Below are positions 24,112 to 63,950 of a stretch of 64,000 bases of DNA, piece after piece. The stretch is taken from assembly GCA_017539045.1 (NCBI GenBank), contig JAFYHS010000012.1:109124-173123 (forward strand), given 5' to 3'. The position numbers and the translations under genes are program-made. The notes below the pieces were generated by a model. That model saw only the letters and a list, made by a program, of their open reading frames with translations, did not search any database and had not been told where the DNA came from. Each line of letters opens with the position of its first letter. Position 1 is the first letter of the stretch. This stretch comes from Bacteroidales bacterium (lineage in GTDB: Bacteria > Bacteroidota > Bacteroidia > Bacteroidales > F082).

Positions 24112-24135
24112 TGTAAAGAGCCTATTCGACACAAT

Positions 24136-24177
24136 CATTCTCAAAGGAGTCATTGCGGACTCCGATCCGCAATCTCC
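24136..24177 (+). repeat. Hairpin repeat family A, copy A1
   Basis: cattctcaaaggagtcattgcggactccgatccgcaatctcc; internal stem attgcgga/tccgcaat. Lies 27 nt upstream of GIY-YIG gene 1. Confidence 0.85.
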
Positions 24178-24204: not shown

Positions 24205-24597
24205 ATGTCACATCAAGGCTTTGTTTACATACTAACAAACAAGTACAACACAACGTTGTATATTGGTGTGACTAATGATTTAAAACGTAGAATTGCCGAA
24301 CATAAACTCCATATTAATAGTGGGTTTAGTGACAAATACAACGTTGAAAAGCTTGTATATTACGAAACCCACGAACAAATGTATGATGCTATTTCGCGAG
24401 AGAAGCAACTGAAAAATTGGCATAGAAAGTGGAAAGAGGATTTAATAAAGGAAAACAATCCTGAGTGGAATGATTTAGCTGAAAGCATCGGTTTGGATGA
24501 AGAGTATGTGCAATCAGTAAAAGAGCATTATGAGGACATGAGTACTGCTGAAGCGTCGTCCAAAAGTGTAGGAGATTGCGGATCAAGTCCGCAATGA
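24205..24597 (+). CDS. GIY-YIG nuclease family protein (small URI-domain protein, COG2827-like) with an extended C-terminal tail
   Basis: GFVYILTNKYNTTLYIGVTNDLKRRIAEH...KLVYYETHEQMYDAISREKQLKNW covers the GIY...YIG, R and E motifs. The last 9 codons and the stop are supplied by an inverted copy of hairpin repeat family A. Confidence 0.85.
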   Translation: MSHQGFVYILTNKYNTTLYIGVTNDLKRRIAEHKLHINSGFSDKYNVEKLVYYETHEQMYDAISREKQLKNWHRKWKEDLIKENNPEWNDLAESIGLDEEYVQSVKEHYEDMSTAEASSKSVGDCGSSPQ

Positions 24598-24598
24598 C
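24571..24598 (-). repeat. Hairpin repeat family A, copy A3 (inverted)
   Basis: ggagattgcggatcaagtccgcaatgac is the reverse complement of the A1 core except in the loop. Overlaps the last codons and stop of GIY-YIG gene 1. Confidence 0.85.
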
Positions 24599-24673
24599 GT
24601 TTCACGGCGAAGTATATTCAAAATGCGCGGTTATTGTTATTACAGTTAGAAAAACCTACTTAAACAAATCATT

Positions 24674-24715
24674 CATTCTCAAAGGAGTCATTGCGGACTC
24701 CAATCCGCAATCTCC
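24674..24715 (+). repeat. Hairpin repeat family A, copy A2
   Basis: Identical to A1 over 42 nt except for one loop base (g to a). Lies 30 nt upstream of rfbA. Confidence 0.85.
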
Positions 24716-25683: not shown

Positions 25684-26892
25684 ATGAAAAGAACCATCAT
25701 CATCACTGGAGGCGCTGGCTTCATCGGCAATCACGTCGTTCGCCTCTTCGTCAACAAATATCCTGAATACAAGATCATCAACCTCGACAAGTTGACCTAC
25801 GCAGGCAACCTCGCCAACCTGAAGGACATCGAAGACAAGCCGAACTACCGCTTTGTCAAGATGGACATCTGCGACTTCGAGGGTGTCTACAAGTTGATGC
25901 AGGACGAACACGTCGACGGCATCATCCACCTCGCCGCCGAGAGCCATGTGGACCGCTCCATCAAAGACCCGTTCACCTTTGCGCAGACCAATGTGATGGG
26001 CACGCTGAGCCTGCTGCAGGCTGCCAAACTCTATTGGGAAGCCCAACCAGAGCCTTGGAAAGTTAAGGTCCCTGAGCCCGTCGAAGGGCCGACCATAAAA
26101 GACGGTGCTTCGACAGGCTCAGCAACCTGCGTTCCTTGCCGCTTCTACCACATCAGCACCGATGAGGTCTATGGTGCCTTGGAGCTGACCGACCCCGAAG
26201 GCATCATGCCTCCTTTCAGCACCAAGGCCAGCAGCGGACAGCACCACTTGGCCTATGGCAGCAAGTTCTTCACCGAAGACCTGAAATACCAACCCCATAG
26301 TCCCTATAGTGCCGCCAAGGCAAGCAGCGACCACTTTGTGCGCGCCTTCCACGACACCTACGGCATGCCCACGGTGGTGACCAACTGCTCCAACAACTAC
26401 GGCCCATACCAGTTCCCCGAGAAGCTGATCCCGCTGTTCATCAATAACATCCGTCACCGCAAGCCGCTGCCTGTCTACGGCAAAGGTGAGAACGTGCGCG
26501 ACTGGCTCTATGTGGAAGACCACGCCCGCGCCATCGACCTCATCTTCCATGAAGGCAAGGTGGCCGAGACCTACAACATCGGCGGCTTCAATGAGTGGAA
26601 GAACATCGACCTCATCAAGGTGTTGATCAATACCGTTGACCGCCTGCTGGGTCGTCCCGAAGGAGCCGATATGGACCTCATCACCTATGTCACCGACCGT
26701 GCCGGACATGATATGCGCTATGCCATCGACTCGACCAAACTCCAGAAAGAACTGGGTTGGGAGCCCAGCCTGCAGTTTGAGGAGGGCATTGAGAAGACCG
26801 TCCGTTGGTATCTCGATAACCAGGAATGGATGGACAACGTGACAAGTGGTGACTATCAGAAGTACTACGACGACATGTACAAAAACAGATAA
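25684..26892 (+). CDS. rfbB: dTDP-glucose 4,6-dehydratase carrying a ~20-aa in-frame repeat-derived insertion
   Basis: IIITGGAGFIGNH...HISTDEVYG...SPYSAAKASSDHFVRAF...VTNCSNNYGPYQFPEKLIP. At 402 aa it is longer than the RmlB sequences I recall. The extra segment KVPEPVEGPTIKDGASTGSAT coincides with hairpin element B1. Confidence 0.95.
   Translation: MKRTIIITGGAGFIGNHVVRLFVNKYPEYKIINLDKLTYAGNLANLKDIEDKPNYRFVKMDICDFEGVYKLMQDEHVDGIIHLAAESHVDRSIKDPFTFAQTNVMGTLSLLQAAKLYWEAQPEPWKVKVPEPVEGPTIKDGASTGSATCVPCRFYHISTDEVYGALELTDPEGIMPPFSTKASSGQHHLAYGSKFFTEDLKYQPHSPYSAAKASSDHFVRAFHDTYGMPTVVTNCSNNYGPYQFPEKLIPLFINNIRHRKPLPVYGKGENVRDWLYVEDHARAIDLIFHEGKVAETYNIGGFNEWKNIDLIKVLINTVDRLLGRPEGADMDLITYVTDRAGHDMRYAIDSTKLQKELGWEPSLQFEEGIEKTVRWYLDNQEWMDNVTSGDYQKYYDDMYKNR
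26067..26127 (+). repeat. Palindromic repeat family B, copy B1 (inside rfbB)
   Basis: ggtccctgagcccgtcgaagggccgacc-ataaaa-gacggtgcttcgacaggctcagcaacc, with imperfectly complementary arms. Confidence 0.8.
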
Positions 26893-32393: not shown

Positions 32394-33788
32394 ATGTTCA
32401 ACAAAACTGACCCATCCTACTTTGACGGTCCATGGACCTTCGAGAAGACCGAACACGCCGTGCTCGGCCTCTGCAAGATCATCGATCGTTATGCCCATAA
32501 GCTGACACTGGAAGACCTGCAGAACGACTCACGTTGCGCCCGCATTCCGGACCTCAGCCTCGATAGGGTGCAGGAGGTCATCGCCGCCGTGGAAGCCAAG
32601 CTCTGGCGTGGTGCTAAGTTCTTCGAGAACGAGGTGATCTATCACACTGGTCCGCATCACGACGACATCATGTTGGGTCTCATGCCCTTCATCAACAGGC
32701 AGTTGAGGACGCCTACCAATCAGGTGCATTTCGCCATCATGACCTCGGGTTATCACTCCGTCACCGATGAATTCCTTCAGAATGCCTTGGAAGACACCTT
32801 GGACTACCTGCATCAAGGCCGCATCCAGATGGTGCTTTACCCCGATTTCTTTGAGCGGGGCTACCGTTTCAAGCAGGAGAAGGACATCCACCATTACCTC
32901 GACAACGTAGCCCGCAAAAACCCCGATGAGATGCGTCGTGGCTTCTGCCATCGCATCCTTCGCGATGCCGTAGGGCTGTGGGGGCTGAAGAACGTCGCCG
33001 ATGTGGAAGCACGCTTCAGGATGGAGATCGAAAACCTCAAGGAGGGTAAGCCCAACAGCAGTGAGCTCCAGAAGCTCAAAGGCGAGATCCGTGAGTTTGA
33101 AGAGGAGCTCGTCTGGGCCTATGCCGGCACCGCCTTGGACCATATCCATCATCTGAGGTTAGGGTTGTATGAAAGTAAAAGCGAGGTGCCTGAGCCTGTC
33201 GAAGGCCCGACTAATAATGAACCGGCCCTTCGACAAGCTCAGGGACCTTGGTCTCCCAACCGTCAGCGTGACGTCGAGCCCATCCTCAATCAATTGCGTG
33301 CGCTGAAGCCCACCGTCATCACCGTAGCCATTGACTCGGAGGGTCAAGGACCCAACACGCACTACAAGGTCATGCAGAGCATCGCCGAGGCCGTCAGGCT
33401 GTGGGGCGAGGAGGCCGACCTCAGCCAGCTGAGGATCTTCGGCTACCGTAACGTGTGGTCGACCTTCCATCCTGCTGAGGCCAACGTATACGTGCCCGTG
33501 TCGCTCAACGCTTTTGCAGTGTTCGAGAAGGCCTTCAAAGACAGTTACCTGACGCAATATAAGGCAGAGTTTCCCAATCCCGACTTCGACGGACCTTTCA
33601 GCGAGCTGGCGGAGCAGATTTGGGTGAAGAACTATAAGGATATCCAGTTCATCCTCGGGAAGAACTTCTTCTACGAAAACGACCACCCGCTCATTCGCGC
33701 CACGCATGGACTGATTTTCTTGAAGGAAATGGACGCGAAGGACTTTGTGGGCTTGGCGGAGGAGATGAAACAAAAGATAAATGTGTAG
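32394..33788 (+). CDS. PIG-L/LmbE-like domain protein (related to the C-terminal half of long Bacteroidales NagB-type proteins), carrying an in-frame repeat insertion
   Basis: HTGPHHDDIMLG resembles the PIG-L HPDD motif, and DSEGQGPNTHYK resembles the second conserved block as I recall it. The segment VPEPVEGPTNNEPALRQAQGPW coincides with hairpin element B2. Confidence 0.45.
   Translation: MFNKTDPSYFDGPWTFEKTEHAVLGLCKIIDRYAHKLTLEDLQNDSRCARIPDLSLDRVQEVIAAVEAKLWRGAKFFENEVIYHTGPHHDDIMLGLMPFINRQLRTPTNQVHFAIMTSGYHSVTDEFLQNALEDTLDYLHQGRIQMVLYPDFFERGYRFKQEKDIHHYLDNVARKNPDEMRRGFCHRILRDAVGLWGLKNVADVEARFRMEIENLKEGKPNSSELQKLKGEIREFEEELVWAYAGTALDHIHHLRLGLYESKSEVPEPVEGPTNNEPALRQAQGPWSPNRQRDVEPILNQLRALKPTVITVAIDSEGQGPNTHYKVMQSIAEAVRLWGEEADLSQLRIFGYRNVWSTFHPAEANVYVPVSLNAFAVFEKAFKDSYLTQYKAEFPNPDFDGPFSELAEQIWVKNYKDIQFILGKNFFYENDHPLIRATHGLIFLKEMDAKDFVGLAEEMKQKINV
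33185..33247 (+). repeat. Palindromic repeat family B, copy B2 (inside the PIG-L-like gene)
   Basis: ggtgcctgagcctgtcgaaggcccgac-taataatgaa-ccggcccttcgacaagctcagggacc. The arms pair at 19 of 21 positions by my count. Confidence 0.85.
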
Positions 33789-33791
33789 TTT

Positions 33792-33850
33792 AAGCCGCCT
33801 ATGTCATTCCAAGCGGAGGATGTGCGACTGGAATCTATAGGCGGCGGCTT
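33792..33850 (+). repeat. Hairpin repeat family C, copy C-c
   Basis: aagccgcctatgtcattccaagcggaggatgtgcgactggaatctataggcggcggctt; outer stem gccgcctat/ataggcggc and inner stem attcca/tggaat. Confidence 0.8.
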
Positions 33851-33873: not shown

Positions 33874-34155
33874 TTGAATCAGTATTGGGTATATATGATG
33901 CAGAGTGCTAATGGACGAGCACTATATACAGGAGTCACAAACGACCTAGTTCGTCGTGTTGGAGAGCATAAAGAGGGCAAAGGGTCCTTTTTTACTGCAA
34001 AGTATAAATGTCATAAATTGGTTTATTATGAAGATTTTGGTTTGATGGACCAAGCCATTCTTAGAGAGAAGGAAATAAAGAATATGACACGGGCAGATAA
34101 AGAAAAGCTTATTGATACTATCAATCCACAACGACTAGATCTATTAGAACAATAA
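33874..34155 (+). CDS. GIY-YIG nuclease family protein (small URI-domain protein, COG2827-like)
   Basis: YWVYMMQSANGRALYTGVTNDLVRRVGEH...KLVYYEDFGLMDQAILREKEIKNM; 93 aa. The TTG start from the track preserves the first beta-strand. Sits between family C hairpins. Confidence 0.8.
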   Translation: MNQYWVYMMQSANGRALYTGVTNDLVRRVGEHKEGKGSFFTAKYKCHKLVYYEDFGLMDQAILREKEIKNMTRADKEKLIDTINPQRLDLLEQ

Positions 34156-34160
34156 AGATA

Positions 34161-34211
34161 GCCTTCCATGTCATTCCAAGTGGAGGTTGTGTGACTGGAA
34201 TCTATGGAAGG
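34161..34211 (+). repeat. Hairpin repeat family C, copy C-d
   Basis: gccttccatgtcattccaagtggaggttgtgtgactggaatctatggaaggc. The core is nearly identical to C-c, and the outer stem differs but still pairs. Confidence 0.8.
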
Positions 34212-34251
34212 CGGCATGAAAGAAAAGACATTAAATATATGACGGTATTAT

Positions 34252-45353: not shown

Positions 45354-46004
45354 ATGTTCCTCAAATTCCTCTTCGACCGCCTCCTTTCCTTCCTTGGCCT
45401 TATCGTCCTTTCGCCGGTGATGCTGGTCGTGGCTATCCTCATCATGGTTAAGATGGGCGGCCCCGTGCTGTTCAAACAGCAACGCATAGGTAAGGATGGC
45501 AAGCAGTTTACTTTGGCAAAGTTCCGAACGATGAAGGCTGACCATGGCGGATCGTCGGTGAGCGTGGCGGGAGAGAGCCGCATCACCCCCTTAGGCGCCA
45601 AATTGCGTAAATACAAGCTGGATGAGCTGCCCGAGCTGTGGAACGTGCTCAGAGGCGACATGAGCTTCGTCGGCCCGCGACCCGATGTGCCTGGCTATGC
45701 TGATAGGCTGGAAGGCGACGACCGCGAGGTCTTGCTGTTGCGCCCCGGCATCACAGGACCCGCCTCGCTGAAGTACCGCAACGAAGAAGAAATGATCGCC
45801 GAGTATGTCGCACAAGCCAAAACACAAGGCGATTCCCGCTCAGAACAAGAGATAGCACTTTGGTATAACGACAACATGATTTGGCCCGACAAAGTGCGTA
45901 TCAACCGATATTACCTGCATCACTATTCCTTTGGCATGGATTTGAAGATGATCCTTGCCACCGTGCTGGGACGTCATATTTTGTATAACGGAGAAACCAT
46001 CTAA
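45354..46004 (+). CDS. Undecaprenyl-phosphate sugar phosphotransferase (small PglC/WcfS-type initiating transferase)
   Basis: LSPVMLVVAILIMVKMGGPVLFKQQRIGKDGKQFTLAKFRTM...DELPELWNVLRGDMSFVGPRP is the bacterial sugar transferase signature; 216 aa. Confidence 0.9.
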   Translation: MFLKFLFDRLLSFLGLIVLSPVMLVVAILIMVKMGGPVLFKQQRIGKDGKQFTLAKFRTMKADHGGSSVSVAGESRITPLGAKLRKYKLDELPELWNVLRGDMSFVGPRPDVPGYADRLEGDDREVLLLRPGITGPASLKYRNEEEMIAEYVAQAKTQGDSRSEQEIALWYNDNMIWPDKVRINRYYLHHYSFGMDLKMILATVLGRHILYNGETI

Positions 46005-47407
46005 TGATCAAAAAACGCATCTACCTCTGCCTCGCTCATATGAGCGACGCAGGCCTCGAACAGAAATATATACAAGAGGCCTTCGACACCAACTGGGTGG
46101 TGCCGCTGGGACCCAATGTCAATGGGTTTGAAAAGGACCTGGAGTCCTTTGTGAATGAGATTAAGGTCCCTGAGCTTGTCGAAGGGCCGACCTTCAATGA
46201 CGGCATTTCGACAGGCTCAACGACCTGCTTAAACAAACGTGTTGTTGCTCTCTCCGCCGGCACGGCGGCCATCCATCTCGCCTTAATCGCCTGCGGCGTG
46301 GGCCCTGGCGACGAGGTCATCGTGCAGTCGTTCACCTTCTGCGCCTCGTCCAACCCTATCACCTACCTCGGCGCGACCCCCGTCTTCGTCGACAGCGAGA
46401 AGGACTCGTGGAACATCGACCCCGAGCTGATGGAAGAGGCCATCCGCGACCGCATCGCCAAGACGGGCCGTAAGCCCAAGGCCATCGTGCCCGTGGCGCT
46501 CTATGGCATGCCTTACGACATCGACCGTATCATGGAGATTGCCAACCGCTACGACATCCCCGTCATCGAAGACGCCGCCGAAGGCTTCGGCAGCCGCTGG
46601 AAGGGACAGGTGCTGGGCACCTTCGGCCGTTATGGCGTACTCTCCTTCAACGGTAACAAGATGATCACCACCTCGGGTGGCGGCGCACTCATCTGCCCCG
46701 ACACACAGGCTTGGCAGCGCATCATGTGGCTGGCCACACAAGCCCGCGAGGCCTACCCTTATTACCAACATGAGGCCATTGGCTACAACTACCGCATGTC
46801 GAACATCTGCGCCGGCATCGGCCGTGGACAGATGACCGTCGCCAATGACCATATCAACCACCACAAGCATGTGCAGAAGATGTATGAGGAGCTGCTGGCT
46901 GGTGTGCTGGGCATACATGTCCACTCGCAGCCTTGTTCCCTTTACGACCGTCATGCCGGACTTGATCCGGCATCTCATGAGATTGCGGGTCAAGCCCGCA
47001 ATGACGGTATGCAGGGTGAGAAGTACGACAGTAACTATTGGTTATGCACCATCACCCTCGACCCAAGCCTGCACGTCAAAGGACAAGAAAACGCCTATAA
47101 GACCGTTATACAAGGTGCGGTAGGTGGTGCGGCAGGCGTGGTTCATGCCAGCAAGAGCGCCCACACCGACTGCGAGCCCAACGCCAACGTGGAGGCCTTG
47201 CGCGTCATCCTCGACCAGGCGGGCATCGAGGCAAGGCCCTTATGGAAGCCCATGCATAAACAGCCCGTCTATAAAGACGCTCCTGCCTATGTCAACGGCG
47301 TCAGCGAAAGCCTCTTCAAGGTAGGCATGTGCCTGCCCAGTGGCCCCTGTGTCAGCGACGAGGACGTGGACTATATCGTAACGTGTATCAAAAACGCTAT
47401 CATCTAA
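46004..47407 (+). CDS. DegT/DnrJ/EryC1-family sugar aminotransferase (PglE/WcfR-like) carrying two in-frame repeat-derived insertions
   Basis: EQKYIQEAFDTNWVVPLGPNV...ALSAGTAAIHLAL...SFNGNKMITTSGGGAL (PLP Lys)...YNYRMSNI...RPLWKPMHKQPVY. At 467 aa it is about 90 aa longer than family members I recall. Confidence 0.9.
   Translation: MIKKRIYLCLAHMSDAGLEQKYIQEAFDTNWVVPLGPNVNGFEKDLESFVNEIKVPELVEGPTFNDGISTGSTTCLNKRVVALSAGTAAIHLALIACGVGPGDEVIVQSFTFCASSNPITYLGATPVFVDSEKDSWNIDPELMEEAIRDRIAKTGRKPKAIVPVALYGMPYDIDRIMEIANRYDIPVIEDAAEGFGSRWKGQVLGTFGRYGVLSFNGNKMITTSGGGALICPDTQAWQRIMWLATQAREAYPYYQHEAIGYNYRMSNICAGIGRGQMTVANDHINHHKHVQKMYEELLAGVLGIHVHSQPCSLYDRHAGLDPASHEIAGQARNDGMQGEKYDSNYWLCTITLDPSLHVKGQENAYKTVIQGAVGGAAGVVHASKSAHTDCEPNANVEALRVILDQAGIEARPLWKPMHKQPVYKDAPAYVNGVSESLFKVGMCLPSGPCVSDEDVDYIVTCIKNAII
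46165..46225 (+). repeat. Palindromic repeat family B, copy B3 (inside the aminotransferase gene)
   Basis: ggtccctgagcttgtcgaagggccgacc-ttcaatga-cggcatttcgacaggctcaacgacc. Confidence 0.8.
46950..47005. repeat. Composite of two family A-like hairpins in opposite orientation, located inside the aminotransferase CDS
   Basis: gtcatgccggacttgatccggcatc + tcatga + gattgcgggtcaagcccgcaatgac. Translated in frame as RHAGLDPASHEIAGQARNDG. Confidence 0.8.
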
Positions 47408-48540: not shown

Positions 48541-50391
48541 ATGGAAGAAAAGAAAAGACTCTTTGAGGAATTTCCTCCCGTGAGCACCCAGGAATGGGAA
48601 GCCGTCATCGAGAAGGACCTCAAAGGCGCTGACTACAACAAAAAGCTGGTTTGGCGTACGGCCGAAGGCTTCAACGTGAGGCCTTACTACCGTGCCGAGA
48701 ACCTGGCGGACATCCCTTGGACGGGCATGGCTCCCAACCAATTCCCCTATGTCCGCGGCAACAAACCCGAAGGCAACAACTGGCTCATCCGTCAGGACAT
48801 CACCGTGAAGGACGTGCATGAGGCCAACAAGATCGCCCTCAACGCCATCAGCCGCGGCGCCAACAGCATCGGCTTCAAGTTGGAGTACGACAAGCCTTAC
48901 GACACCATCGCCATCTCGACGCTGCTCAACGGCATCGACCAGAAGGCTGTGGAGATCAACTTCTACAACAACAAGTACCACTTGCCGATCCTCGAGATGC
49001 TCTCGAAGATCCCGGACATCAAGGGTTCGTTGAACTACGACCCGCTGACGCGTTATCTGCGTCGTGGTGTGTGGTATATCAACGAGGGTGCCGACATGGA
49101 ACTGGGCTACATCATGGTGAAAGCCGAGATGCCTGGCTTCGACACCATCGGCGTCAACGGCCACGTATTCACCAACGCCGGTGCCACCATCGTGCAGGAG
49201 ATGGCCTTCAGCCTCGCCGTGGGTGCCGAATATCTCGACAAACTCACCGAGAAAGGCCTGACCATCGACGAGATTGCACCCAAGATGCGCTTCAACATCG
49301 CTGTGGGTCAGAACTACTTCATGGAGCTGGCTAAGATGCGTGCCTATCGTCTGCTGTGGGCCAACATCGTGAAGGCCTACGGCGGCAAGGAAGAGAATGC
49401 CAAGATGCACATCCACGCCACCAACGCCGAACTCGGCATGAGCCTCTACGACGCTTACGTCAACATGCTGCGCACCACCACGGGCACGATGTCAGCCGTC
49501 CTCGGTGGCGTCGACTCGTTCACCGTGATGCCGTTCGACACGCCGTTTGAGATCCCCACCGACTTCGCCGACCGTATCGCACGCAACCAACAGCTCGTCC
49601 TCAAGGAAGAGGCCCACTTCGACAAGGTGGCCGACCCCGCCGCAGGTTCTTACTACATCGAGAACCTCACAGAGAGCCTGGCCGTGGCCGCTTGGGACCT
49701 GTTCAACAAGATCCAAGACGAAGGCGGCTATCTCGCAGCCGTCCGCAAGGGCATGATCCAAGGCCTCATCAAGGAGAGCGCTGCCAAGAAGTTCAGCAAC
49801 GTGGCTACCCGCCGCGAGACCATCCTGGGCACCAACCAGTTCCCGAACTTCACCGAGACGATGAAGTTCACGCCCGAGGCTTGGGTCTTCGAAGCCGACG
49901 ACCGCCGCGATGCCAATGCCGAGGTCGAGACCATCGTCACCTTCCGCGCTGCCCAGCAGTTCGAGAAGCTGCGTTTCGCCACTGACGTCTATGCCCAAGA
50001 CCACAAGCGTCCTGTGGCTTGGATGTTCACCTACGGCAACCTCGCCATGCGTAAGGCCCGTGCCAACTTCGCGTCTAACTTCTTCGCCTGCGCCGGCTTC
50101 CAAGTCGTCGACAACCCAGGCTTCAAGACCTTGGACGAAGGCATCGCCGCCGCCCGCGAAGTGAAGCCCGAGATCCTGGTCATCTGCTCTTCCGACGAGG
50201 AATATGGCGAAGGCAACGCCCTTAAGATCTACGAGGAGTTGAAGAACGAAACCATCGTGGTGCTTGCCGGTAACCCCGAAGGCACCATCGACATCCTCAA
50301 AGAAGCTGGCCTGAAGTATTTCATCCACGTCAAGAGCAACGTGCTTGATACCTTAACGGAATTCCAAAAGCAATTAGGTATAACGAAATAA
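48541..50391 (+). CDS. mutA: Methylmalonyl-CoA mutase small (beta) subunit
   Basis: 616 aa. The N-terminus (FPPVSTQEWEAVIEKDLKGADYNKKLVWRTAEGFNVRPYY) and its position immediately upstream of the large subunit fit MutA. Confidence 0.85.
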   Translation: MEEKKRLFEEFPPVSTQEWEAVIEKDLKGADYNKKLVWRTAEGFNVRPYYRAENLADIPWTGMAPNQFPYVRGNKPEGNNWLIRQDITVKDVHEANKIALNAISRGANSIGFKLEYDKPYDTIAISTLLNGIDQKAVEINFYNNKYHLPILEMLSKIPDIKGSLNYDPLTRYLRRGVWYINEGADMELGYIMVKAEMPGFDTIGVNGHVFTNAGATIVQEMAFSLAVGAEYLDKLTEKGLTIDEIAPKMRFNIAVGQNYFMELAKMRAYRLLWANIVKAYGGKEENAKMHIHATNAELGMSLYDAYVNMLRTTTGTMSAVLGGVDSFTVMPFDTPFEIPTDFADRIARNQQLVLKEEAHFDKVADPAAGSYYIENLTESLAVAAWDLFNKIQDEGGYLAAVRKGMIQGLIKESAAKKFSNVATRRETILGTNQFPNFTETMKFTPEAWVFEADDRRDANAEVETIVTFRAAQQFEKLRFATDVYAQDHKRPVAWMFTYGNLAMRKARANFASNFFACAGFQVVDNPGFKTLDEGIAAAREVKPEILVICSSDEEYGEGNALKIYEELKNETIVVLAGNPEGTIDILKEAGLKYFIHVKSNVLDTLTEFQKQLGITK

Positions 50392-50406: not shown

Positions 50407-52542
50407 ATGAAACCCAATTTTAAAGATATCAACATCAACGCTATACCTAAGAACAACGGCATCATCCTGCCGAACGGCGAGCTTTGGGAGACCCACGAAC
50501 ACATCATGGTGAAGCCTGCCTATACCGAGAAAGACCTCGAAGGCATGGAACACCTCAACTACGCCGCTGGTATCGCTCCCTTCCTCCGTGGACCTTACTC
50601 GACGATGTATGTGATGCGTCCTTGGACCATCCGTCAGTACGCCGGTTTCTCCACTGCTGAAGAATCCAACGCCTTCTACCGCCGTAACATCGCGGCAGGT
50701 CAGAAAGGTCTGTCCGTGGCCTTCGACTTGGCCACCCACCGTGGCTACGACGCCGACCACGAGCGCGTCATGGGCGACGTGGGTAAGGCTGGCGTGAGCA
50801 TCTGCTCCGTCGAAGACATGAAGGTCCTGTTCGACCAGATCCCGCTGAATAAGATGTCCGTCTCTATGACCATGAACGGTGCCGTGTTGCCGATCTTGGC
50901 CTTCTATATCGTCGCTGCCTTGGAGCAGGGTGCCAAGTACGAAGAGTTGCAAGGCACCATCCAGAACGATATCCTGAAGGAGTTCATGGTGCGTAACACC
51001 TATATCTATCCGCCTGAGTTCTCGATGCGCATTATCGCCGACATCTTCGAGTTTACCTCGCAGAACATGCCGAAGTTCAACAGCATCTCCATCTCGGGTT
51101 ACCACATGCAGGAAGCCGGTGCCACCTCCGACATCGAGATGGCTTATACCTTGGCCGACGGTTGGGACTACCTCCGCACCGGTGTCAAGGCTGGCTTGGA
51201 CATCGACGCCTTCGCACCGCGTCTGTCCTTCTTCTGGTGCTCGGGCATGAACCACTTCATGGAGATTGCCAAGATGCGTGCCGCCCGTATGCTGTGGGCC
51301 AAGATCGTAAGCACCTTCAACCCGAAGAGCACCAAGTCATTGGCCTTGCGTACCCACACGCAGACCTCTGGCTGGAGCCTTACCGAGCAAGACCCGTTCA
51401 ACAACGTGGCCCGTACCTGCATCGAGGCTATGGGCGCCGCCTTGGGTCACACCCAGTCGCTGCATACCAACGCTTTGGACGAAGCTATCGCTCTGCCCAC
51501 CGACTTTAGCGCCCGTATCGCACGTAACACCCAGATCTACATCCAGGAAGAGACCAACGTCTGCCGCGTGGTTGACCCGTGGGCTGGTTCCTACTACGTG
51601 GAGAGCCTTACCAACGAGATTGCCCACCGCGCTTGGGGTCACATCCAGGAGGTGGAAGCTATGGGTGGTATGGCCAAAGCCATCGAGACCGGTCTGCCTA
51701 AGATGCGTATCGAGGAAGCCTCAGCCCGCAAGCAGGCCCAAATCGACTCAGGTCGCGAGACCATCGTAGGTATCAACAAGTACCGCCTCGACCACGAAGA
51801 CCCCATCGAGACCTTGGAAATCGACAACACCGCCGTGCGCGAGTCGCAAATCAAGCGTCTGAAGGAGCTCCGCGCCAACCGCAACGAGGCCGACGTGCAG
51901 CGTTGCCTCGATGCCATCACCAAGTGCGCAGAGACCCACGAGGGCAACTTGCTGGCATTGGCTATTGAAGCCGCCAAGTGCCGCGCATCCTTGGGTGAGA
52001 TTTCGATGGCATGCGAGAAGGTCGCAGGCCGTTACAAAGCAGTTATCCGTTCAATTTCAGGAGTGTATTCTATGGAAACAAAAAACGATGCAAGATTTGA
52101 GGAGGCCTGCAAGATGGCTGACGAGTTTGCCAAGTTGGAAGGTCGTCGTCCGCGTATCATGGTTGCCAAGATGGGTCAGGACGGTCACGACCGTGGCGCC
52201 AAGGTGGTCGCCACCGGTTATGCCGACATCGGCTTCGATGTCGATATGGGCCCGTTGTTCCAGACGCCCGCCGAGGCTGCCAAGCAAGCTGTGGAGAACG
52301 ACGTCCACATCATGGGCGTGAGTTCGCTGGCCGCAGGTCACAAGACCCTCGTGCCTCAGGTGATTGAAGAGTTGGAGAAACTCGGTCGTCCTGACATCAT
52401 GGTCACTGTGGGTGGCGTGATTCCCGCCCAGGACTATCAGTTCCTCTACGACGCCGGCGCTGTGGCCATCTTCGGTCCCGGTACTCCCGTCAGCGAGTCC
52501 GCTATCAAGATGCTGGAACTGCTGCTGGCTGCCAGAAAATGA
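50407..52542 (+). CDS. mutB: Methylmalonyl-CoA mutase large (alpha) subunit, B12-dependent
   Basis: [37 protein letters not shown]...[18 protein letters not shown] and the C-terminal B12-binding domain ([12 protein letters not shown], containing the DxHxxG motif). Confidence 0.95.
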
Positions 52543-57875: not shown

Positions 57876-60800
57876 ATGAAATACAAGGGTATCATCATCG
57901 CTGCGGCAACGCTTTTGGTCGTTGGCGCCCTCTCTTTTGCGTCGACGAACACTTTGACGAAAGTCCCGGCAGCACCTAAAAACAATTATGAAGACATGTG
58001 GAAAAAAGTAAAGGAAAACCTCGACAAGAACCTGCCTGAATCGGCAGAGAAGGAGCTGGATGCCATTGAGCAACAGGCTGCAAAAGACAAAAATGACATA
58101 CAACTGCTGAAGACCTACCTCTATCGACAAAAGATCTTCCAGTTCACCGTCGAGGAAGACCCCGACCAACACTTCATCCAATATGCCGAGTCGAAGATCG
58201 GGCAACTGGACGAGGTGTGCAACGCCCTCTTGCACGAAGAAATCGCCAAGGCTTACGCCAACTATCTGGAGTCGAACGAATGGACTATCAACGAAAACCT
58301 GCCCATCGATGGCGATATCTCCAAGGTAGAGATGAAAAATTGGGACAAGGAGAGTTTCAAGACGCGCATCAACCAACACTATGACGAGGCGCTGAAGCCC
58401 ATCGAGGCACTGAAAAAAGCCAAGACCGCAGATTTCATGGAGCTGTTTGAAAACAAGAACAACAACGAGGAAAACATCGAATACGAAGCCTCGCTCTTCG
58501 AGTTTATGTTCCACCGCGTGGCCAAATATTATCAAGAAGAGGCCAACGCCGACCAAGCCGAGGGCGACACCGAAAAGTGGTGGCTGCCCGCCAAGGACTT
58601 CGTGAAAGCCGACTTGGGCGATTTCGACAACCCGCTTGTCAAATGTCTGAAAATCTATCAGGAACTGATTGCCTACAACCTCAAAAACTCGAATGAGGAT
58701 GTTTTGATTTACAACGATTTCAAGCGTTTTGAATTCGTCAACAACACCCTCGGCATCCTTCTCCATTACACGCAATACCAAGTCGCAATGGAGGACCTGA
58801 AGGCGCAACACAAAGAAAACCCACTTTCTGCTGAAATCACAGCATTGATAGCGCGAAACTTGATGAACCAATACGAGAACAATATCGAGGACAGCACTTA
58901 TTTCGACAACTACAAGAAAGCCAAGACGATGTGCGAAGAGGCCATCGCCAAGTTCCCGAAGTCACAGGGCGCGAAAAACTGCGAAAACCTCATCAAACGC
59001 ATTGAGGAGCCGCAAATCGACCTGACTTTGAATAAAGTGCAACTGCCCAACGAGGCCATCCCCGCCGTGTTGGAATACAAAAACACGACTGCACCTTATT
59101 ATAGAATCGTGAAAGTCAGCGAGAAAGAATTGAGCAAATTGAATACTATGCAAAAGGAGGATTTGCTCAAGGAATTGAACAAAAAAATGCCCGTCGCGGA
59201 GCAGGACCTCATGTTGCCCGCTGAAACCGACTATCGCAGCCACAGCACCTTGATTGCCTTGCCCGCTTTGGAGGAAGGCATCTACTACCTGACTGCCACC
59301 ACCAAACAAGGTGTCAAGAGTGAGGATAAAACGTTGGTACTCACTTTCCAAGTCTCCAACCTCGGTTATATCGTTGACCAAAAGGACGAAAAAATGACCG
59401 TAGTGACCGTGGACCGCAAAACGGGGAAAACCGTGGAAGGCGTCACCGTGGAACTCTACCGTCGCGAGTGGGACTACAAAGCCCGCGAACACAAGACCAT
59501 CATCATCGCCACGATGAAGTCCGACAAAAACGGTCGCGCCGTGCTTGATGGCAAAGTGGGCAGCAACAATTCCTTTGGCATCAACCTGCGCAAAGGCGAT
59601 GACAACCTGCTTGCGAACAACCAATTCAGCCTCAATGAGCGATACAAGAACAACAACGAGGTGTACGAAACGAAACTCTTCACCGACCGCGCCATCTATC
59701 GTCCCGGTCAGACCGTTTACTTCCAAGGTATCGTGACGCGCCGCCAAGGTGAAGACTTGAGCCTTGTGAACAATTATTCGGAAAAGGTTTCTTTCCGCGA
59801 TGCCAACTGGCAAGAGATCAGTTCGGCCAACTTTAACACCGACGAATACGGCTCATTCAGCGGCTCTTTTGTCATCCCCTCCGACAGGCTGAACGGCGTG
59901 TTCCACCTCAACGCCAATCGTGGCAGCGTGACCATCCGTGTGGAGGAATACAAACGCCCGACTTTCGAGGTGACTTTTGAACAGCCGAAAGAGCAATACA
60001 AACTGAACCAAGAAGTTACAGTGCGCGGCGACGTGAAAGCCTACGCCGGTTTCGGCTTGGACGATGTGGAATACAGCTACCGTGTCGTCCGCAAGACCTC
60101 CTTCCCGTGGCGTTGCTGGTGGTGGTGGTACCCAGTCGTCGATGACGAGCAAATCGCCCACGGCAAGGCCCGCACCGACGAAAACGGCAAGTTCGCCATC
60201 ACCTTCAACCTGAAGCCTTCCAAGACCATCGCGCCGGAGAAACAGCCTATGTTCACCTACGAAATCGAGGTGACCGCCACGAGCAAGCAGGGCGAAACCC
60301 ACGCCGACACTTACAGCATTCGTGCGGGCTACAACGAAATCGCCATCAGCACCGACTTGCCCCGCACCATCGAGAAATCAGACATCGGCAAGTACCAAAT
60401 CACTGTGAGCAACCTCAGTTGGCAGCCCGCCAAGAGCCGCATTTCGCGGAAGATTTACCGCTATGACGACAAGGCCAAGATTAATTATTTCGAGGCGATG
60501 CAACATTTGGAAGTCCTTGACCGACAATTGCATAGTGATGAACAATTGAACAAACTTTTCCCTGAATACAGTTTCTATGACAAGCGAACCAAGACTTTGG
60601 TCGATGAGGCCGAAATTATGGTGGACGACAAGGCCAAGTTCTTGGAAGGCAAGACTTTGGAATCTGGGAATTATGTCATGGAACTCAAGAGTTTGGACGA
60701 TCCCTTGGCTGTAATGACGGAGGAATTCACTATTTACGAGAATGAAGCCAAAAAGATGCCTTATACCGCTATGGTTTGGAGCGATGTGGACAAATCGACC

Positions 60801-63800
60801 GCCCATCCCGGCGACGAAATCCATTTCAGCATCGGCAGTTCGGCCAAGGATGTGGACATTTGGGTGCAGTTGCTCCATGGCGACGAAATCCGTCTGGACA
60901 AGAAAATCACCGTCAGCAACAGTGTGCAGACCTTTACTTATAAGGTGACCGAAGGCGACCGTGGTGGCCTCAATTTCCGTTATGTCCTCTTGAAGGAAAA
61001 TGCTTTCAGGACTGGTGACGATCATATTTCCGTGCCTTTCGACAACTATGATTTGGACGTGAAATTGGCCACCGTGCGCGACAAACTCAACCCCGGTGCT
61101 GAAGAGACTTGGGAAGTGACCGTCAACGACTACAAGAAAAAACCTTTGGAGGCCGCTTTACTGGCTGGAATGTATGATGCCTCATTGGATGAATTTGAAC
61201 GCAATTACTGGAGTTTCAGTTTGTCGCCTTGGGGCCCACGCAGTTTCCGTTTTTCCACCTGTGCGCACGACTTCACCTCATCCAACACGGGGCTGGAATA
61301 CTTTTATTTCGCTGAACTCTTCAACTTCAGCCTGCCTTCTGATGCGCCCTTCTTTGATTTTGGATATGGCTTCGGAATGCGCCGTTATAGAAAAGGTGGG
61401 CGTGTGCTTTATGATGTTGTGGAAGAATATGCCGCACCGATGGAAGCGGGAGCAGCGTTAGAGAAATCCTCCAATTCAGTGGATTACGAAATCCCCTTGG
61501 TGGCACAAAATGCTGCGGATGAAGAAATGGTCGAAATAACGAAACAAGAAGGCGTTTATCTTTATGAATCAGAAGGACAGAACGAAAAAACCGAAGAATT
61601 CGCCGAGCCCACCCTCCGCGAGAACTTCAACGAGACCGCCTTCTTCTTCCCGCAACTGCGCACGAACAACGACGGTAGCGCGACCTTCAGCTTCACCATG
61701 CCCGATGCCCTCACACGTTGGCGCCTGATGCTGTTGGCTTACACCAAGGACCGCAAGACTGGCAGCAAGGACTACACTTTCACTTCGTCGAAGCCCGTGA
61801 TGATTATGGCCGACATGCCGCGCTATATGTACGACAACGACGAACTATGGTTTGTGGCCAACGTCATCAACACGGGCGATGAGCCTGTCACGCCCAAGGC
61901 GAAACTCGAGATTTTTGATGCGGGCACGATGCAACCTGTGAATTTGATTGTTATGGACGGCCCTTCGACAGGCTCAGGGACCTACACGATACCGATGGAA
62001 ACCATACAGCCCGGTCGCAGCAAGGAAGTACGCTGGAAAGTGAAGGGACAATATGATTTGAGTCTGTTGGCCTTCCGTTTCACGGCCTACGCGGGACAGT
62101 TCAGTGATGCCGAGCAGCATCTCCTGCCCGTGTTGAGCAGCGAAATCTTCATGACGCAAACCCTGCCCATCACCGTGAAGGCCGAGACCGAGAAAACCTT
62201 CGACTTCGAGGCCATCGCCAACCCCGACAGCCACGAGCGCGACTACAGCCTGACCTTGAACTTCAGCACCAACCCCGTGTGGTACGCCGTGCAGGCCCTG
62301 CCTTACCTGGCCAACGTCAGCACCGACCGCGCCGAGACGGCCTTCTATGTGTTCTATGCCAACACGCTTTCGTCCTACATCGCCGACCACATCCCGAACC
62401 TCTTGAACTACATCAAGAAATGGCAAATCGAGACGCCCGATGCCCTGCTCTCGCAACTCGAGAAAGACCAAGACTTGAAAGCCATCATGTTGCAAGAAAC
62501 GCCGTGGGTACTTGAGGCCAAGAGCGAAACCGAGCAACGTAGCCGCATCGCCAACCTGTTTGAAATCAACACGCTGCGCGGCCAACAAACCCGTGCGCTG
62601 CAACTCATCCAGCAGAAACAGAAATACAATGGCGGCTGGCCTTGGATGGATGGAATGCCCGAGAGTCCCTACATCAGCACCTATATCTTGAGCGGCTTCG
62701 GCAAGTTGCAGAAGATGGGCGCTTGGAGTTCGTTGAGCAAGGCCGACCAAAACACCGCCCAAAGCATCTGCGACAAGGCCGTGCGTTACCTCGAATACGA
62801 AGTGGCCGAGACCTATCGCAACATGAAGCGTTACAGCAAAGGCAAAGACTGGCCCATCGGTTCCAGCACTTTGAACGAACTCTATGCCTTGAGTTTCTTC
62901 AAGGAGCAAAACTCTGACAAGGACTTTGCCACGGCCAAGAAATACTACCTTGGCAGCCTCGACAAGGAGTGGACTTCGTTCAATTTCAACCAACGCTCGA
63001 AGGGAGCCTTGGTGCTCTACCGCAACGGCAACGAAAAGACCGCCAAGCTGATGATTCAGAGTTTCAAGGAATGTGCCCAGAAAAACGAGCAAATCGGCAT
63101 GTACTGGCCGAAGAAATACTTCTCGTTTGAATCGCATATCGCCACCCACGCCAACATCATGGCCGCCTTCGCCGAGATTGACCAGAACCAGGAGATGATT
63201 GACGAACTGCGTGTGTGGCTGCTGACCCAGAAGCAGACCAACAAATGGGAAAACTCCGCCTCCACCGCCGATGCCATCTATGCCCTGCTCATGCGCGGCA
63301 GCGATTGGTTCGAGGAAGGGAAGGAAGTCATCCTGCGCTTCGGCAACACGCCTATCAGCACCGAGGGCGGCGTAGCCGGCACGGGCTTCATCCAACGCCG
63401 TTGGAACGCCAACGAAGTGACACAAGACATGCGTCAACTCACCGTCAACAACCCGACCCCGCACTTGGTCTGGGGCGGTCTGTTCCGCCAGTATTTCGTC
63501 CCGATTGACGAAGTCAAGAGCGACGAGTCGGGCTTTACCATCAAGCGCGAGTTGTTTGTGGAGACGGTCACTGACAAGGGCAAGAAACTTGTTCCCGTGG
63601 AGAAGCAAGCCTTGAAAGTCGGTGACAAACTGACTGTGAAGATCACCTTCACCAGCCAGCAAGACATGAGTTTCGTCTTCATCAAGGACCTCCGCGCCGC
63701 CGGTTTCGAGCCGATAGAGCAGATCTCGCGCTATGAATACAACGACCGCATGAGCTACTACCAGAGCAACACCGACACCGACATGGAGTTCTTCATCGAG

Positions 63801-63950
63801 TTCCTGCCCAAGGGCACGCATCAGGTGGAATACAGCATGTTCGTCACCAAGGAAGGCTACCTCAACAACGGCTACGCCTTGATACAGTGTCAGTATGCGC
63901 CGGAGTTCAGTGCGTATTCTGACGGCATGCGCGTGAAGGTAGGGGAGTAA
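57876..63950 (+). CDS. Alpha-2-macroglobulin family protein (large MG-domain protein; no CxEQ thioester seen)
   Basis: 2024 aa with a signal peptide, repeated MG-like beta-sandwich segments, a TED-like region (QKYNGGWPWMDGMPESPYISTYILSGFGKL) and a C-terminal receptor-binding-like domain. Confidence 0.8.
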   Translation: MKYKGIIIAAATLLVVGALSFASTNTLTKVPAAPKNNYEDMWKKVKENLDKNLPESAEKELDAIEQQAAKDKNDIQLLKTYLYRQKIFQFTVEEDPDQHFIQYAESKIGQLDEVCNALLHEEIAKAYANYLESNEWTINENLPIDGDISKVEMKNWDKESFKTRINQHYDEALKPIEALKKAKTADFMELFENKNNNEENIEYEASLFEFMFHRVAKYYQEEANADQAEGDTEKWWLPAKDFVKADLGDFDNPLVKCLKIYQELIAYNLKNSNEDVLIYNDFKRFEFVNNTLGILLHYTQYQVAMEDLKAQHKENPLSAEITALIARNLMNQYENNIEDSTYFDNYKKAKTMCEEAIAKFPKSQGAKNCENLIKRIEEPQIDLTLNKVQLPNEAIPAVLEYKNTTAPYYRIVKVSEKELSKLNTMQKEDLLKELNKKMPVAEQDLMLPAETDYRSHSTLIALPALEEGIYYLTATTKQGVKSEDKTLVLTFQVSNLGYIVDQKDEKMTVVTVDRKTGKTVEGVTVELYRREWDYKAREHKTIIIATMKSDKNGRAVLDGKVGSNNSFGINLRKGDDNLLANNQFSLNERYKNNNEVYETKLFTDRAIYRPGQTVYFQGIVTRRQGEDLSLVNNYSEKVSFRDANWQEISSANFNTDEYGSFSGSFVIPSDRLNGVFHLNANRGSVTIRVEEYKRPTFEVTFEQPKEQYKLNQEVTVRGDVKAYAGFGLDDVEYSYRVVRKTSFPWRCWWWWYPVVDDEQIAHGKARTDENGKFAITFNLKPSKTIAPEKQPMFTYEIEVTATSKQGETHADTYSIRAGYNEIAISTDLPRTIEKSDIGKYQITVSNLSWQPAKSRISRKIYRYDDKAKINYFEAMQHLEVLDRQLHSDEQLNKLFPEYSFYDKRTKTLVDEAEIMVDDKAKFLEGKTLESGNYVMELKSLDDPLAVMTEEFTIYENEAKKMPYTAMVWSDVDKSTAHPGDEIHFSIGSSAKDVDIWVQLLHGDEIRLDKKITVSNSVQTFTYKVTEGDRGGLNFRYVLLKENAFRTGDDHISVPFDNYDLDVKLATVRDKLNPGAEETWEVTVNDYKKKPLEAALLAGMYDASLDEFERNYWSFSLSPWGPRSFRFSTCAHDFTSSNTGLEYFYFAELFNFSLPSDAPFFDFGYGFGMRRYRKGGRVLYDVVEEYAAPMEAGAALEKSSNSVDYEIPLVAQNAADEEMVEITKQEGVYLYESEGQNEKTEEFAEPTLRENFNETAFFFPQLRTNNDGSATFSFTMPDALTRWRLMLLAYTKDRKTGSKDYTFTSSKPVMIMADMPRYMYDNDELWFVANVINTGDEPVTPKAKLEIFDAGTMQPVNLIVMDGPSTGSGTYTIPMETIQPGRSKEVRWKVKGQYDLSLLAFRFTAYAGQFSDAEQHLLPVLSSEIFMTQTLPITVKAETEKTFDFEAIANPDSHERDYSLTLNFSTNPVWYAVQALPYLANVSTDRAETAFYVFYANTLSSYIADHIPNLLNYIKKWQIETPDALLSQLEKDQDLKAIMLQETPWVLEAKSETEQRSRIANLFEINTLRGQQTRALQLIQQKQKYNGGWPWMDGMPESPYISTYILSGFGKLQKMGAWSSLSKADQNTAQSICDKAVRYLEYEVAETYRNMKRYSKGKDWPIGSSTLNELYALSFFKEQNSDKDFATAKKYYLGSLDKEWTSFNFNQRSKGALVLYRNGNEKTAKLMIQSFKECAQKNEQIGMYWPKKYFSFESHIATHANIMAAFAEIDQNQEMIDELRVWLLTQKQTNKWENSASTADAIYALLMRGSDWFEEGKEVILRFGNTPISTEGGVAGTGFIQRRWNANEVTQDMRQLTVNNPTPHLVWGGLFRQYFVPIDEVKSDESGFTIKRELFVETVTDKGKKLVPVEKQALKVGDKLTVKITFTSQQDMSFVFIKDLRAAGFEPIEQISRYEYNDRMSYYQSNTDTDMEFFIEFLPKGTHQVEYSMFVTKEGYLNNGYALIQCQYAPEFSAYSDGMRVKVGE
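61957..61982 (+). repeat. Palindromic repeat family B, right-arm-only copy B4 (inside the alpha-2-macroglobulin gene)
   Basis: gacggcccttcgacaggctcagggacc matches the right arms of B1-B3. No left arm is present upstream. Confidence 0.65.

Follow-up and report, generated by a model that had tools for sequence, protein, structure and literature searches.

Introduction

Two described systems stand closest to the element considered here, a pair of hairpin repeats at 46950-47005 lying in frame within a sugar aminotransferase gene, in a 64,000-nucleotide stretch of DNA from a Bacteroidales bacterium (GenBank assembly GCA_017539045.1, contig JAFYHS010000012.1, positions 109,124 to 173,123 of the forward strand; the whole analysed stretch is called the window below, and positions are counted from its first letter). 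The CGTC-tagged repetitive extragenic palindromes (REPs; Di Nocera, De Gregorio and Rocco, 2013; PMC3733652) consist of a CGTC, TGTC or CCTC tag, a stem of 8-9 bp opening with A-T pairs, a loop of 4-5 nt and a short tail. They frequently form heterodimers, count Neisseria dRS3 and Rickettsia RPE-4 and RPE-6 among their members, and have been reported in 5 phyla, including Bacteroidetes, with "no dedicated transposase" identified; most are extragenic, and a minority lie in frame inside genes as inserts of 20-30 amino acids (PMC3733652).

The other system centers on the Neisseria repeat NTS (CGTCATTCCCGCG..GCGGGAATC), which, like its relatives, the Ssn-related motifs (SRMs), flanks genes for small single-domain GIY-YIG proteins named Ssn (Chenal et al., 2025; PMC11893778). 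Ssn proteins from Neisseria and Wolbachia bind the motif only as single-stranded DNA (ssDNA) and in one orientation, and their cut falls a few bases to its 5' side; for cutting, the positions of NTS that weigh most are the three that precede the palindrome on the 5' side, and for binding it is the C that directly follows the palindrome on the 3' side (PMC11893778). Both the hairpin family and its GIY-YIG partner had already been published (PMC3733652, PMC11893778), which was not known to an earlier note on this DNA, made by a model from the letters without database searches. The colonization of protein loops by palindromic repeats is a known phenomenon, of which the present locus is a clear new example; the kind of element is not new.

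The hairpin pair and its reading frame

The hairpin pair, the insertion to which it belongs and the host gene comprise the following features:

46004..47407, + strand: host gene, a DegT/DnrJ/EryC1-family, PglE/LegC-like sugar aminotransferase of 467 amino acids (PF01041, E = 3e-83)
46154..46234, + strand: site 1, an in-frame insert of a different inverted-repeat family (NEIKVPELVEGPTFNDGISTGSTTCLN), RNA fold -36.6 kcal/mol
46939..47013, + strand: insertion of 75 nt (25 codons) encoding LYDRHAGLDPASHEIAGQARNDGMQ, its first and last codons straddling the boundaries
46943..46948, + strand: left copy of a 6-bp direct repeat, TACGAC, within the left flank of the insert
46949..46976, + strand: hairpin 1, with a C-GTC tag, an 8-bp stem (ATGCCGGA/TCCGGCAT), the loop CTTGA, and C plus a tail TC; read as HAGLDPAS
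46975..46980, no strand: spacer TCATGA; the tails face each other (ATCTC-AT-GAGAT), the tags point outward
46979..47006, - strand: hairpin 2, with a C-GTC tag, a stem (ATTGCGGG/CCCGCAAT), the loop CTTGA, and C plus a tail TC; the + strand is read as EIAGQARND
47024..47029, + strand: right copy of TACGAC, forming codons Y-D of the conserved YDSNYW

Each 25-mer forms an 8-bp stem (AT plus 6 bp) around a 5-nt loop. The first, gtcatgccggacttgatccggcatc (GTCATGCCGGACTTGATCCGGCATC), occupies 46950-46974 and is laid out as GTCAT GCCGGA CTTGA TCCGGC ATC; its tagged strand, the one putatively recognized by Ssn, is the + strand. The second, gattgcgggtcaagcccgcaatgac (GATTGCGGGTCAAGCCCGCAATGAC), occupies 46981-47005, and its reverse complement (GTCAT TGCGGG CTTGA CCCGCA ATC) has the same frame with another stem. 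Common to both is the frame GTCAT-N6-CTTGA-N6'-ATC, in which N6 is self-complementary and different in each. By its sequence, then, this is a heterodimer: two hairpin repeats with their tags on the outside and their tails turned to each other.

Folding of 46930-47025 as DNA gave -23 kcal/mol (z = -4.6), and none of 200 shuffles was as stable. A strict scan for GTCAT, a perfect stem and AT found 5 copies in the window (starting at 24149, 24575, 24687, 46950 and 46982), compared with 0.13 in shuffles; the chance expectation of exact or near matches to the 25-mers in the window is 0.00.

The open reading frame (ORF) 46004..47407 runs in frame through the hairpin pair, as ...GIHVHSQPCSLYDRHAGLDPASHEIAGQARNDGMQGEKYDSNYWLCTI... 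(...SQPCSLYDRHAGLDPASHEIAGQARNDGMQGEKYDSNYW...). Four of the six frames of the hairpin motif are stop-free, and the gene reads through the insert because this is 25 codons long and its two hairpins occupy two of those four frames. The earlier note had described two 25-nt hairpins in opposite orientation, separated by tcatga and read in frame inside the aminotransferase, and this observation was confirmed. It had also assigned hairpin 2 to the type found around the first of two GIY-YIG genes in the window; the copy at 24574-24598 does match hairpin 2, with 2 mismatches that together make one compensated base-pair change (A-T to G-C).

The spacer junction ATCTCATGAGA recurs in unrelated genomes (e.g., L028). 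In the metagenome collection, the 23-nt junction of the doublet was found on one contig, in the same aminotransferase gene. REPIN-like dispersal of the doublet was rejected on this basis: since the exact junction occurs only in this gene in that collection, the doublet has not been dispersed as a unit.

Filled, empty and scar alleles

The segment 46939-47013 is an insertion. In a DNA alignment to an empty allele that is 93% identical over the gene (L001/P0003), there is one clean gap of exactly 75 nt, corresponding to CCTTTACGAC, a 58-nt palindrome (CGTCAT...ATGACG) and GTATGCA, in other words to the hairpin dimer with 10 and 7 extra bases at its sides. Orthologues were sampled as 120 homologues of 74-94% identity, giving a 121-sequence alignment with the query, and among these the segment from HSQP to YDSNYW is hypervariable. 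The insert peptide is common to P0001, P0002, P0004, P0005 and P0006, and six protein clusters are empty (P0003, P0007, P0009, P0011, P0012 and P0026, reading SQPCS-GEKYDS or SQPCS-EEKYDS). Conservation of the segment in distant homologues, which the earlier note had named as the finding that would count against a repeat insertion, is not what is seen: close orthologues are without it, and so is PglE (1o61).

Five independent assemblies carry the insert (the window, L002, L128, L129 and, by protein, P0002/P0004/P0006), so it is not an assembly artefact. It is identical at 75 of 75 positions in the window, L002, L128 and L129, with 19 variable sites in 166 flanking bases.

No target-site duplication was found at the junction relative to P0003, and no clean one is evident at the insertion. 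Another allele, P0010 (L123), reads TGTTCCCTT joined to TACGAC, which is the expected product of a deletion between the two TACGAC copies; it may equally well be a deletion scar or a site as it was before the insertion, carrying a 6-bp duplication. In the filled allele, the flank peculiar to P0003 and that peculiar to P0010 occur together.

The host enzyme and its locus

The host protein is nearest to the LegC and PseC models but reaches neither equivalog cut-off, scoring 319 bits against the NCBIfam LegC family, below the cut-off of that model. Its closest solved structure is PglE (1o61/4ztc, E = 1e-74), which aligns in three blocks, the breaks falling exactly at both insert sites. The earlier note had put the protein about 90 amino acids over family members; the two repeats account for 27 + 25 = 52 amino acids, fewer than that figure. 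What further length the protein has over PglE (386-394 amino acids) comes from a subfamily-conserved segment at residues about 355-400.

The ratio of nonsynonymous to synonymous substitution rates (dN/dS) of the host gene is 0.12-0.18 relative to four orthologues; among insert-bearing alleles it is 0.12-0.14, at a synonymous divergence (dS) of 0.31-0.59. A dN/dS of about 0.13 indicates that the gene is under purifying selection, and the low ratio between insert-bearing alleles argues that it works with the insert.

An AlphaFold model of the host protein (63 close homologues; mean predicted local distance difference test, pLDDT, of 64, which is middling) was used only for the disorder of the insert segments. 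Residues 55-73 and 312-337 are coil in this model, with pLDDT below 50, and strands 304-306 and 348-352 stand on either side of the latter segment. For the 25 extra residues the prediction is thus a disordered surface loop between two beta-strands of the C-terminal domain.

The locus is one of polysaccharide synthesis, with epimerase, rmlA-like and rmlB-like genes and glycosyltransferases, and a Bac_transf gene directly upstream of the aminotransferase.

Membership of the hairpin family

On the tagged strand both hairpins read cCGTCAT, so that they carry the tag of the CGTC-tagged REPs; the hairpins at 24149 and 24687, on either side of GIY-YIG gene 1, carry an AGTC tag. In both, an 8-bp stem opens with two A-T pairs and carries a loop of 5 nt, within the 8-9 bp and 4-5 nt of CGTC-tagged REPs. 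Their 3' tail is CTC(A/C), where the CGTC-tagged REP consensus has CCA. The family is multi-copy, with the 5 copies in 64 kb (0.13 expected) and with pairing kept across at least 35 public stems. The putative Ssn determinants, GTC 5' and C 3' of the palindrome, are present in both hairpins. These sequence characters place the hairpins in the CGTC-tagged REP superfamily, whose other name is Ssn-related motifs.

Their wider distribution was followed in a public scan of one genome per species for GTCAT-N6-CTTGA-N6-ATCTC, a pattern that requires no pairing, which yielded at least 120 loci. Among the 144 matches listed, 108 (75%) have perfect 6/6 stems, vs. 1.2% expected from column composition; these 108 perfect copies include at least 35 distinct stems, and the base before GTCAT is C in 57 of them and T in 46. 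Hosts among the matches listed are Bacteroidota, Alpha- and Gammaproteobacteria, Campylobacterota, Chloroflexota, Actinomycetota, Fibrobacter, Treponema, candidate phyla and others. Because pairing is kept across varied stems and many phyla, this appears to be a structure-constrained repeat superfamily.

Eight of the 108 perfect hairpins among the matches listed are 30 or more codons deep in stop-free frames that span 200 codons or more; they are candidate in-frame copies in other phyla (L057, from Sulfurimonas; L112; L043; others). In some relatives the hairpins bear the tag CCTCAT where the window has CGTCAT; this holds within the aminotransferase gene in L124 and for copies elsewhere in L127 and L128. 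In-gene hairpins may follow the genome's own tag variant, yet L128 has both tags.

The insert peptide itself was used in a protein search, with the query doubled to reach 40 amino acids, which gave 31 candidates, with 9 short ORFs at E <= 10. HAGLDPAS and IAGQARND were found in called ORFs of 47-76 amino acids, one of them from Mariprofundales. The statement in the earlier note that HAGLDPAS and AGQARND recur in short hypothetical proteins is thereby supported, and their occurrence extends beyond Bacteroidota, given the Mariprofundales case; the search confirms the recurrence of the peptides and is no census of host proteins. Rfam at its gathering threshold found one tRNA elsewhere in the whole window and nothing else, and at E <= 1 on 46850-47100 it found only a chance P13 match; a known RNA family is not involved in the hairpin insert.

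GIY-YIG genes and their flanking repeats

The two GIY-YIG genes of the window and the repeats around them are:

24132..24177, + strand: 46-nt direct repeat with a hairpin (GTCATTGCGGACTCCGATCCGCAATC, 24149-24174), 30 nt upstream of GIY-YIG gene 1
24205..24597, + strand: GIY-YIG gene 1, 130 amino acids (PF01541, E = 5.5e-18), its last codons and stop (DCGSSPQ*) coming from a hairpin
24574..24598, - strand: hairpin over the stop of GIY-YIG gene 1, an inverted copy and the closest relative of hairpin 2
24670..24715, + strand: second copy of the 46-nt direct repeat with hairpin, 96% identical, downstream of GIY-YIG gene 1
33793..33848, + strand: long-loop relative of the motif (TGTCATTCC...GGAATC, with an outer palindrome around it), upstream of GIY-YIG gene 2
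33874..34155, + strand: GIY-YIG gene 2, 93 amino acids, single domain (PF01541, E = 3.6e-16)
34160..34215, + strand: second copy of the 56-nt long-loop motif repeat, 84% identical, downstream of GIY-YIG gene 2

Both genes thus stand between direct hairpin-bearing repeats, in the SRM-gene-SRM arrangement. The ORF of gene 1 continues into the hairpin, which gives ...GDCGSSPQ and a TGA stop, the hairpin frame that yields this ending being the frame that ends the gene. Because the ORF runs into the hairpin in this way, the C-terminus of gene 1 (130 amino acids vs. 93 in gene 2) is probably repeat-derived. The proteins are matched by Pfam PF01541 only, with no NCBIfam family and no relative in the PDB; the CDD family of the Ssn system is cd10448.

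For homologues of gene 2 in other assemblies, the long-loop motif was present on both sides in 6 of the 6 loci inspected. A perfect-stem scan around these homologues found nothing, since the stem of this motif is bulged and its loop long; direct reading of the flanks did show it. An SRM-type hairpin also precedes a GIY-YIG start in L128, at a distance of 33 nt. Among 120 randomly sampled public hairpin loci, one has a GIY-YIG gene within 8 kb, a proportion that is uninformative because a few genes and many repeats would give it.

The unit of motif, GIY-YIG gene and motif (490-nt period) occurs as a tandem pair in L130, L131, L133 and L134; the corresponding site of L132 has it once. This looks like a change in copy number via recombination between the flanking direct repeats.

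Variable loops in the orthologues

All internal indels in the 121-sequence alignment fall at three places, residues 53-76 (site 1), residues 311-337 (site 2, where the hairpin pair lies) and after residue 424 (site 3). Site 1 may be empty (FVGQ-NK, in FVGQ-NKRVVALS), may hold a single SRM (NEIAGQARND, NEIPHQVRNE), or may be filled otherwise, with the VPELVEGP...STGSTTC family as in the window, with VETYGRTSLQ, or with many more. Short native loops at site 2 are DER, ATGE and CSGEK; its fillings are the present SRM doublet, a second SRM doublet (HAALDAASQEIPGQARNEV, with a longer form in P0056), and at least 8 other repeat-like peptides, including KVSPKGGDLEGA, FESSELRVESLESVE and KRSLGLARDDNKEDARDD. 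Site 3 (about 47275 in the window) holds GVESLEFRVESLPNGIVRQTSDKS in 14 orthologues, including P0002 and P0005, and is empty in the window allele. The DNA of several of the loop inserts is strongly self-complementary.

The P0070/P0056 doublet, in the same loop as that of the window, differs from it by one compensated flip per hairpin (GCCGGA/TCCGGC to GCCGCA/TGCGGC in hairpin 1, TGCGGG/CCCGCA to TCCGGG/CCCGGA in hairpin 2), with zero uncompensated stem changes. P0056 also has its left flank in common with the window doublet (CTATACAAC vs. CTTTACGAC). Independent insertions at the loop would fit the different stems, but not this common flank; the two doublets may go back to a single old insertion in which the structure was preserved, or may reflect conversion by further copies.

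When the variable sites are left out of the tree, the states of site 1 and site 2 combine almost freely across it, and pairwise identity along the aminotransferase gene is blocky, so that recombination is frequent.

Other repeats in the window

That one gene carries insertions from two repeat families, as the earlier note proposed, holds for 46154-46234 together with the hairpin doublet, and the site-1 family has relatives elsewhere in the window:

26063-26130: copy of the site-1 family in ORF 25684..26892 (+ strand), 68 nt, 85% identical to 46161-46228, in frame as VKVPEPVEGPTIKDGASTGSATC
33189-33248: copy of the site-1 family in ORF 32394..33788 (+ strand), in frame as VPEPVEGPTNNEPALRQAQGP
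61958-61983: half copy of the site-1 family in ORF 57876..63950 (+ strand), in frame as GPSTGSGT

ORF 25684..26892 encodes an rmlB-like dehydratase, and its GDP_Man_Dehyd match is broken into two stretches. At least 4 genes of the 64-kb window hold repeat-derived in-frame segments. Stretches of 60 and 116 nt are also repeated, at 72-85% identity, between 49311-49670 and 51249-51611 in the adjacent ORFs 48541..50391 and 50407..52542; the resemblance is more that of paralogous subunits than of a mobile repeat.

Discussion

The explanation that we consider probable is that a heterodimer of the CGTC-REP/SRM type inserted into a permissive loop of the aminotransferase, where it is translated and tolerated. 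The doublet would have come from the genome's own pool of hairpins, by the same route as that by which they spread, probably involving single-stranded DNA and linked to the GIY-YIG genes that the same hairpins bracket. It would persist since the loop tolerates extra residues, as a translated passenger and not as a functional peptide, and each DNA strand would now carry one potential Ssn site.

Several points weigh against this explanation. Mobilization of these hairpins has been demonstrated nowhere, the published activity of Ssn being ssDNA cleavage, not transposition, and a doublet that is not dispersed may have arisen in situ. The published SRM pattern, HGTCWYN(0-2)YYVSBRHN(0-5)WNVSBRGN(0-2)RNCYNB, hand-made from 29 genomes in 4 phyla, fits none of 7 copies in the window; the mismatch arises because the window stems begin with GC or TG rather than YY, and it limits the claim that the hairpins are SRMs as defined, leaving the shared architecture unaffected. 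The insert is 75/75 identical in four alleles with dS of 0.31-0.59, although an old, purely neutral passenger should drift; such identity across diverged alleles implies either recent spread by (short-tract) recombination or constraint at the DNA level. Finally, translation of the loop is predicted from the reading frame, and the AlphaFold model is middling (mean pLDDT 64).

Constraint on the DNA is the substance of the main alternative, in which selection keeps the doublet as paired Ssn sites, one on each strand, with an effect on how this gene of the polysaccharide locus recombines or is taken up. The model here would be NTS around Neisseria surface-protein genes, with coding read-through as the price of an intragenic position. 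An insert frozen at 75 of 75 nt between varying flanks at this dS would suit it, as would the intact reported determinants of Ssn binding and cutting in both hairpins, a P0070/P0056 doublet that differs only by one compensated flip per hairpin, the presence of the hairpins and two GIY-YIG genes in one glycan locus, and a mosaic gene in which site-1 and site-2 alleles assort independently. We nevertheless think it unlikely, though worth keeping in view: presence and absence of the doublet are polymorphic among near-identical alleles, one of which resembles a deletion scar, entirely different repeats fill the same loop in other lineages, and recent spread by recombination would explain the identity of the insert equally well. 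Ssn function outside Neisseria is not known (PMC11893778, discussion).

It seems improbable that the hairpins act instead as an RNA element in the operon transcript, whether in processing or stability or as a transcriptional or translational pause tuning the aminotransferase and downstream genes. The RNA fold is strong (-41.5 kcal/mol for the 90-nt site) and REPs have generally been proposed as RNA elements (PMC3733652), but no T-run follows the hairpins, an Rfam match is absent, close orthologues do without the insert, and Ssn does not bind RNA (PMC11893778). There is very little to recommend the idea of an adaptive role for the 25 residues in the protein, for instance as a new interaction or regulatory loop. 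Preservation of the frame and purifying selection on the gene would be expected under it; against this, close orthologues lack the insert, unrelated peptides occupy the same loop elsewhere (KVSPKGGDLEGA, FESSELRVESLESVE and others), the segment is predicted to be disordered, and its peptide is merely what the hairpin DNA encodes, recurring in spurious short ORFs. Removal of the insert before the protein is made, as an intron, an intein or by ribosomal bypass, is effectively refuted, as is an assembly artefact: the 75 nt are without intron or intein features and without an Rfam match, they are in frame and stop-free, which bypass or splicing would not need, five independent assemblies carry them, and nothing was found in favor.

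A more speculative suggestion concerns the loops themselves: the three may serve as landing pads to which hairpin repeats return, each displacing another, and not just as places where random insertions survive. We would put this down as rather doubtful. It is prompted by the at least 10 unrelated repeat-derived peptides at site 2 among orthologues 74-94% identical, with more at site 1, by the compensated stem flips among SRM doublets of the same loop, by insert DNA frozen across alleles with dS of 0.3-0.6, and by the independent assortment of site-1 and site-2 alleles. If true, it would mean a hairpin-targeted turnover mechanism, one possible form of which is that Ssn nicks ssDNA beside a resident hairpin and repair proceeds from another repeat copy; loop diversification and punctuated recombination in Prevotellaceae glycan-synthesis loci would be among its consequences.

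The case deserves specialist attention for its Bacteroidales setting, its series of filled, empty and scar alleles and its three recurrent landing loops. An oddity of raw sequence is tied here to two published frameworks, that of the CGTC-tagged REPs and that of the Ssn/SRM nuclease-motif pairs, and both are extended to a Prevotella-like Bacteroidales genome, in which the published SRM pattern would miss the motif. For one enzyme loop, alleles in the filled, empty and scar state exist next to each other; together with the many alternative repeat fillings, they make up a very clean natural experiment that could be used to study how the repeats move, whether Ssn acts on them, and how far a loop of a pyridoxal phosphate (PLP) enzyme tolerates foreign sequence. 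For annotation, such repeats explain length variation and odd low-complexity segments in Bacteroidales proteins, as well as a class of spurious short ORFs (containing HAGLDPAS, IAGQARND or the terminal DCGSSPQ).

Comparison with known systems

With REPIN/RAYT systems, the locus shares an inverted doublet of REP-type hairpins and a small nuclease gene between its own repeats. The tag is CGTC here vs. GTAG there, the nuclease is of the GIY-YIG type vs. a Y1 HUH transposase, and the doublet here is not dispersed as a unit.

The Rickettsia palindromic elements (RPEs) are likewise palindromic repeats in frame in protein genes, a resemblance of behavior. RPE host proteins stay functional, and the inserts lie in surface regions. 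RPE-1 is much longer (about 100-150 nt), and both the lineage and the host genes are different.

The likeness to the CGTC-tagged REPs extends to the unpaired CGTC/TGTC tag, the 8-bp stem with two leading A-T pairs, the 5-nt loop and the inverted heterodimer. They differ in the tail, CTC here and CCA in the consensus, the level at which the four published families were compared. Neither a sugar aminotransferase host nor repeated colonization of the same loops by many repeat families is part of that account (PMC3733652).

The NTS/SRM system differs in its stems (TGCGGG/GCCGGA here vs. TCCCGCG in NTS) and in that its Ssn proteins are known from biochemistry, the GIY-YIG proteins of the window from sequence alone. 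Bacteroidota and Prevotella are absent from the main text of PMC11893778, in which NTS is rarely intragenic (2%) and in-frame copies are not discussed. The two share the head (H)GTC(A/T)(C/T), a palindrome with C as the next base on its 3' side, a motif on both sides of small single-domain GIY-YIG genes, and a wide phyletic spread, published SRMs reaching hundreds of copies in some genomes (PMC11893778).

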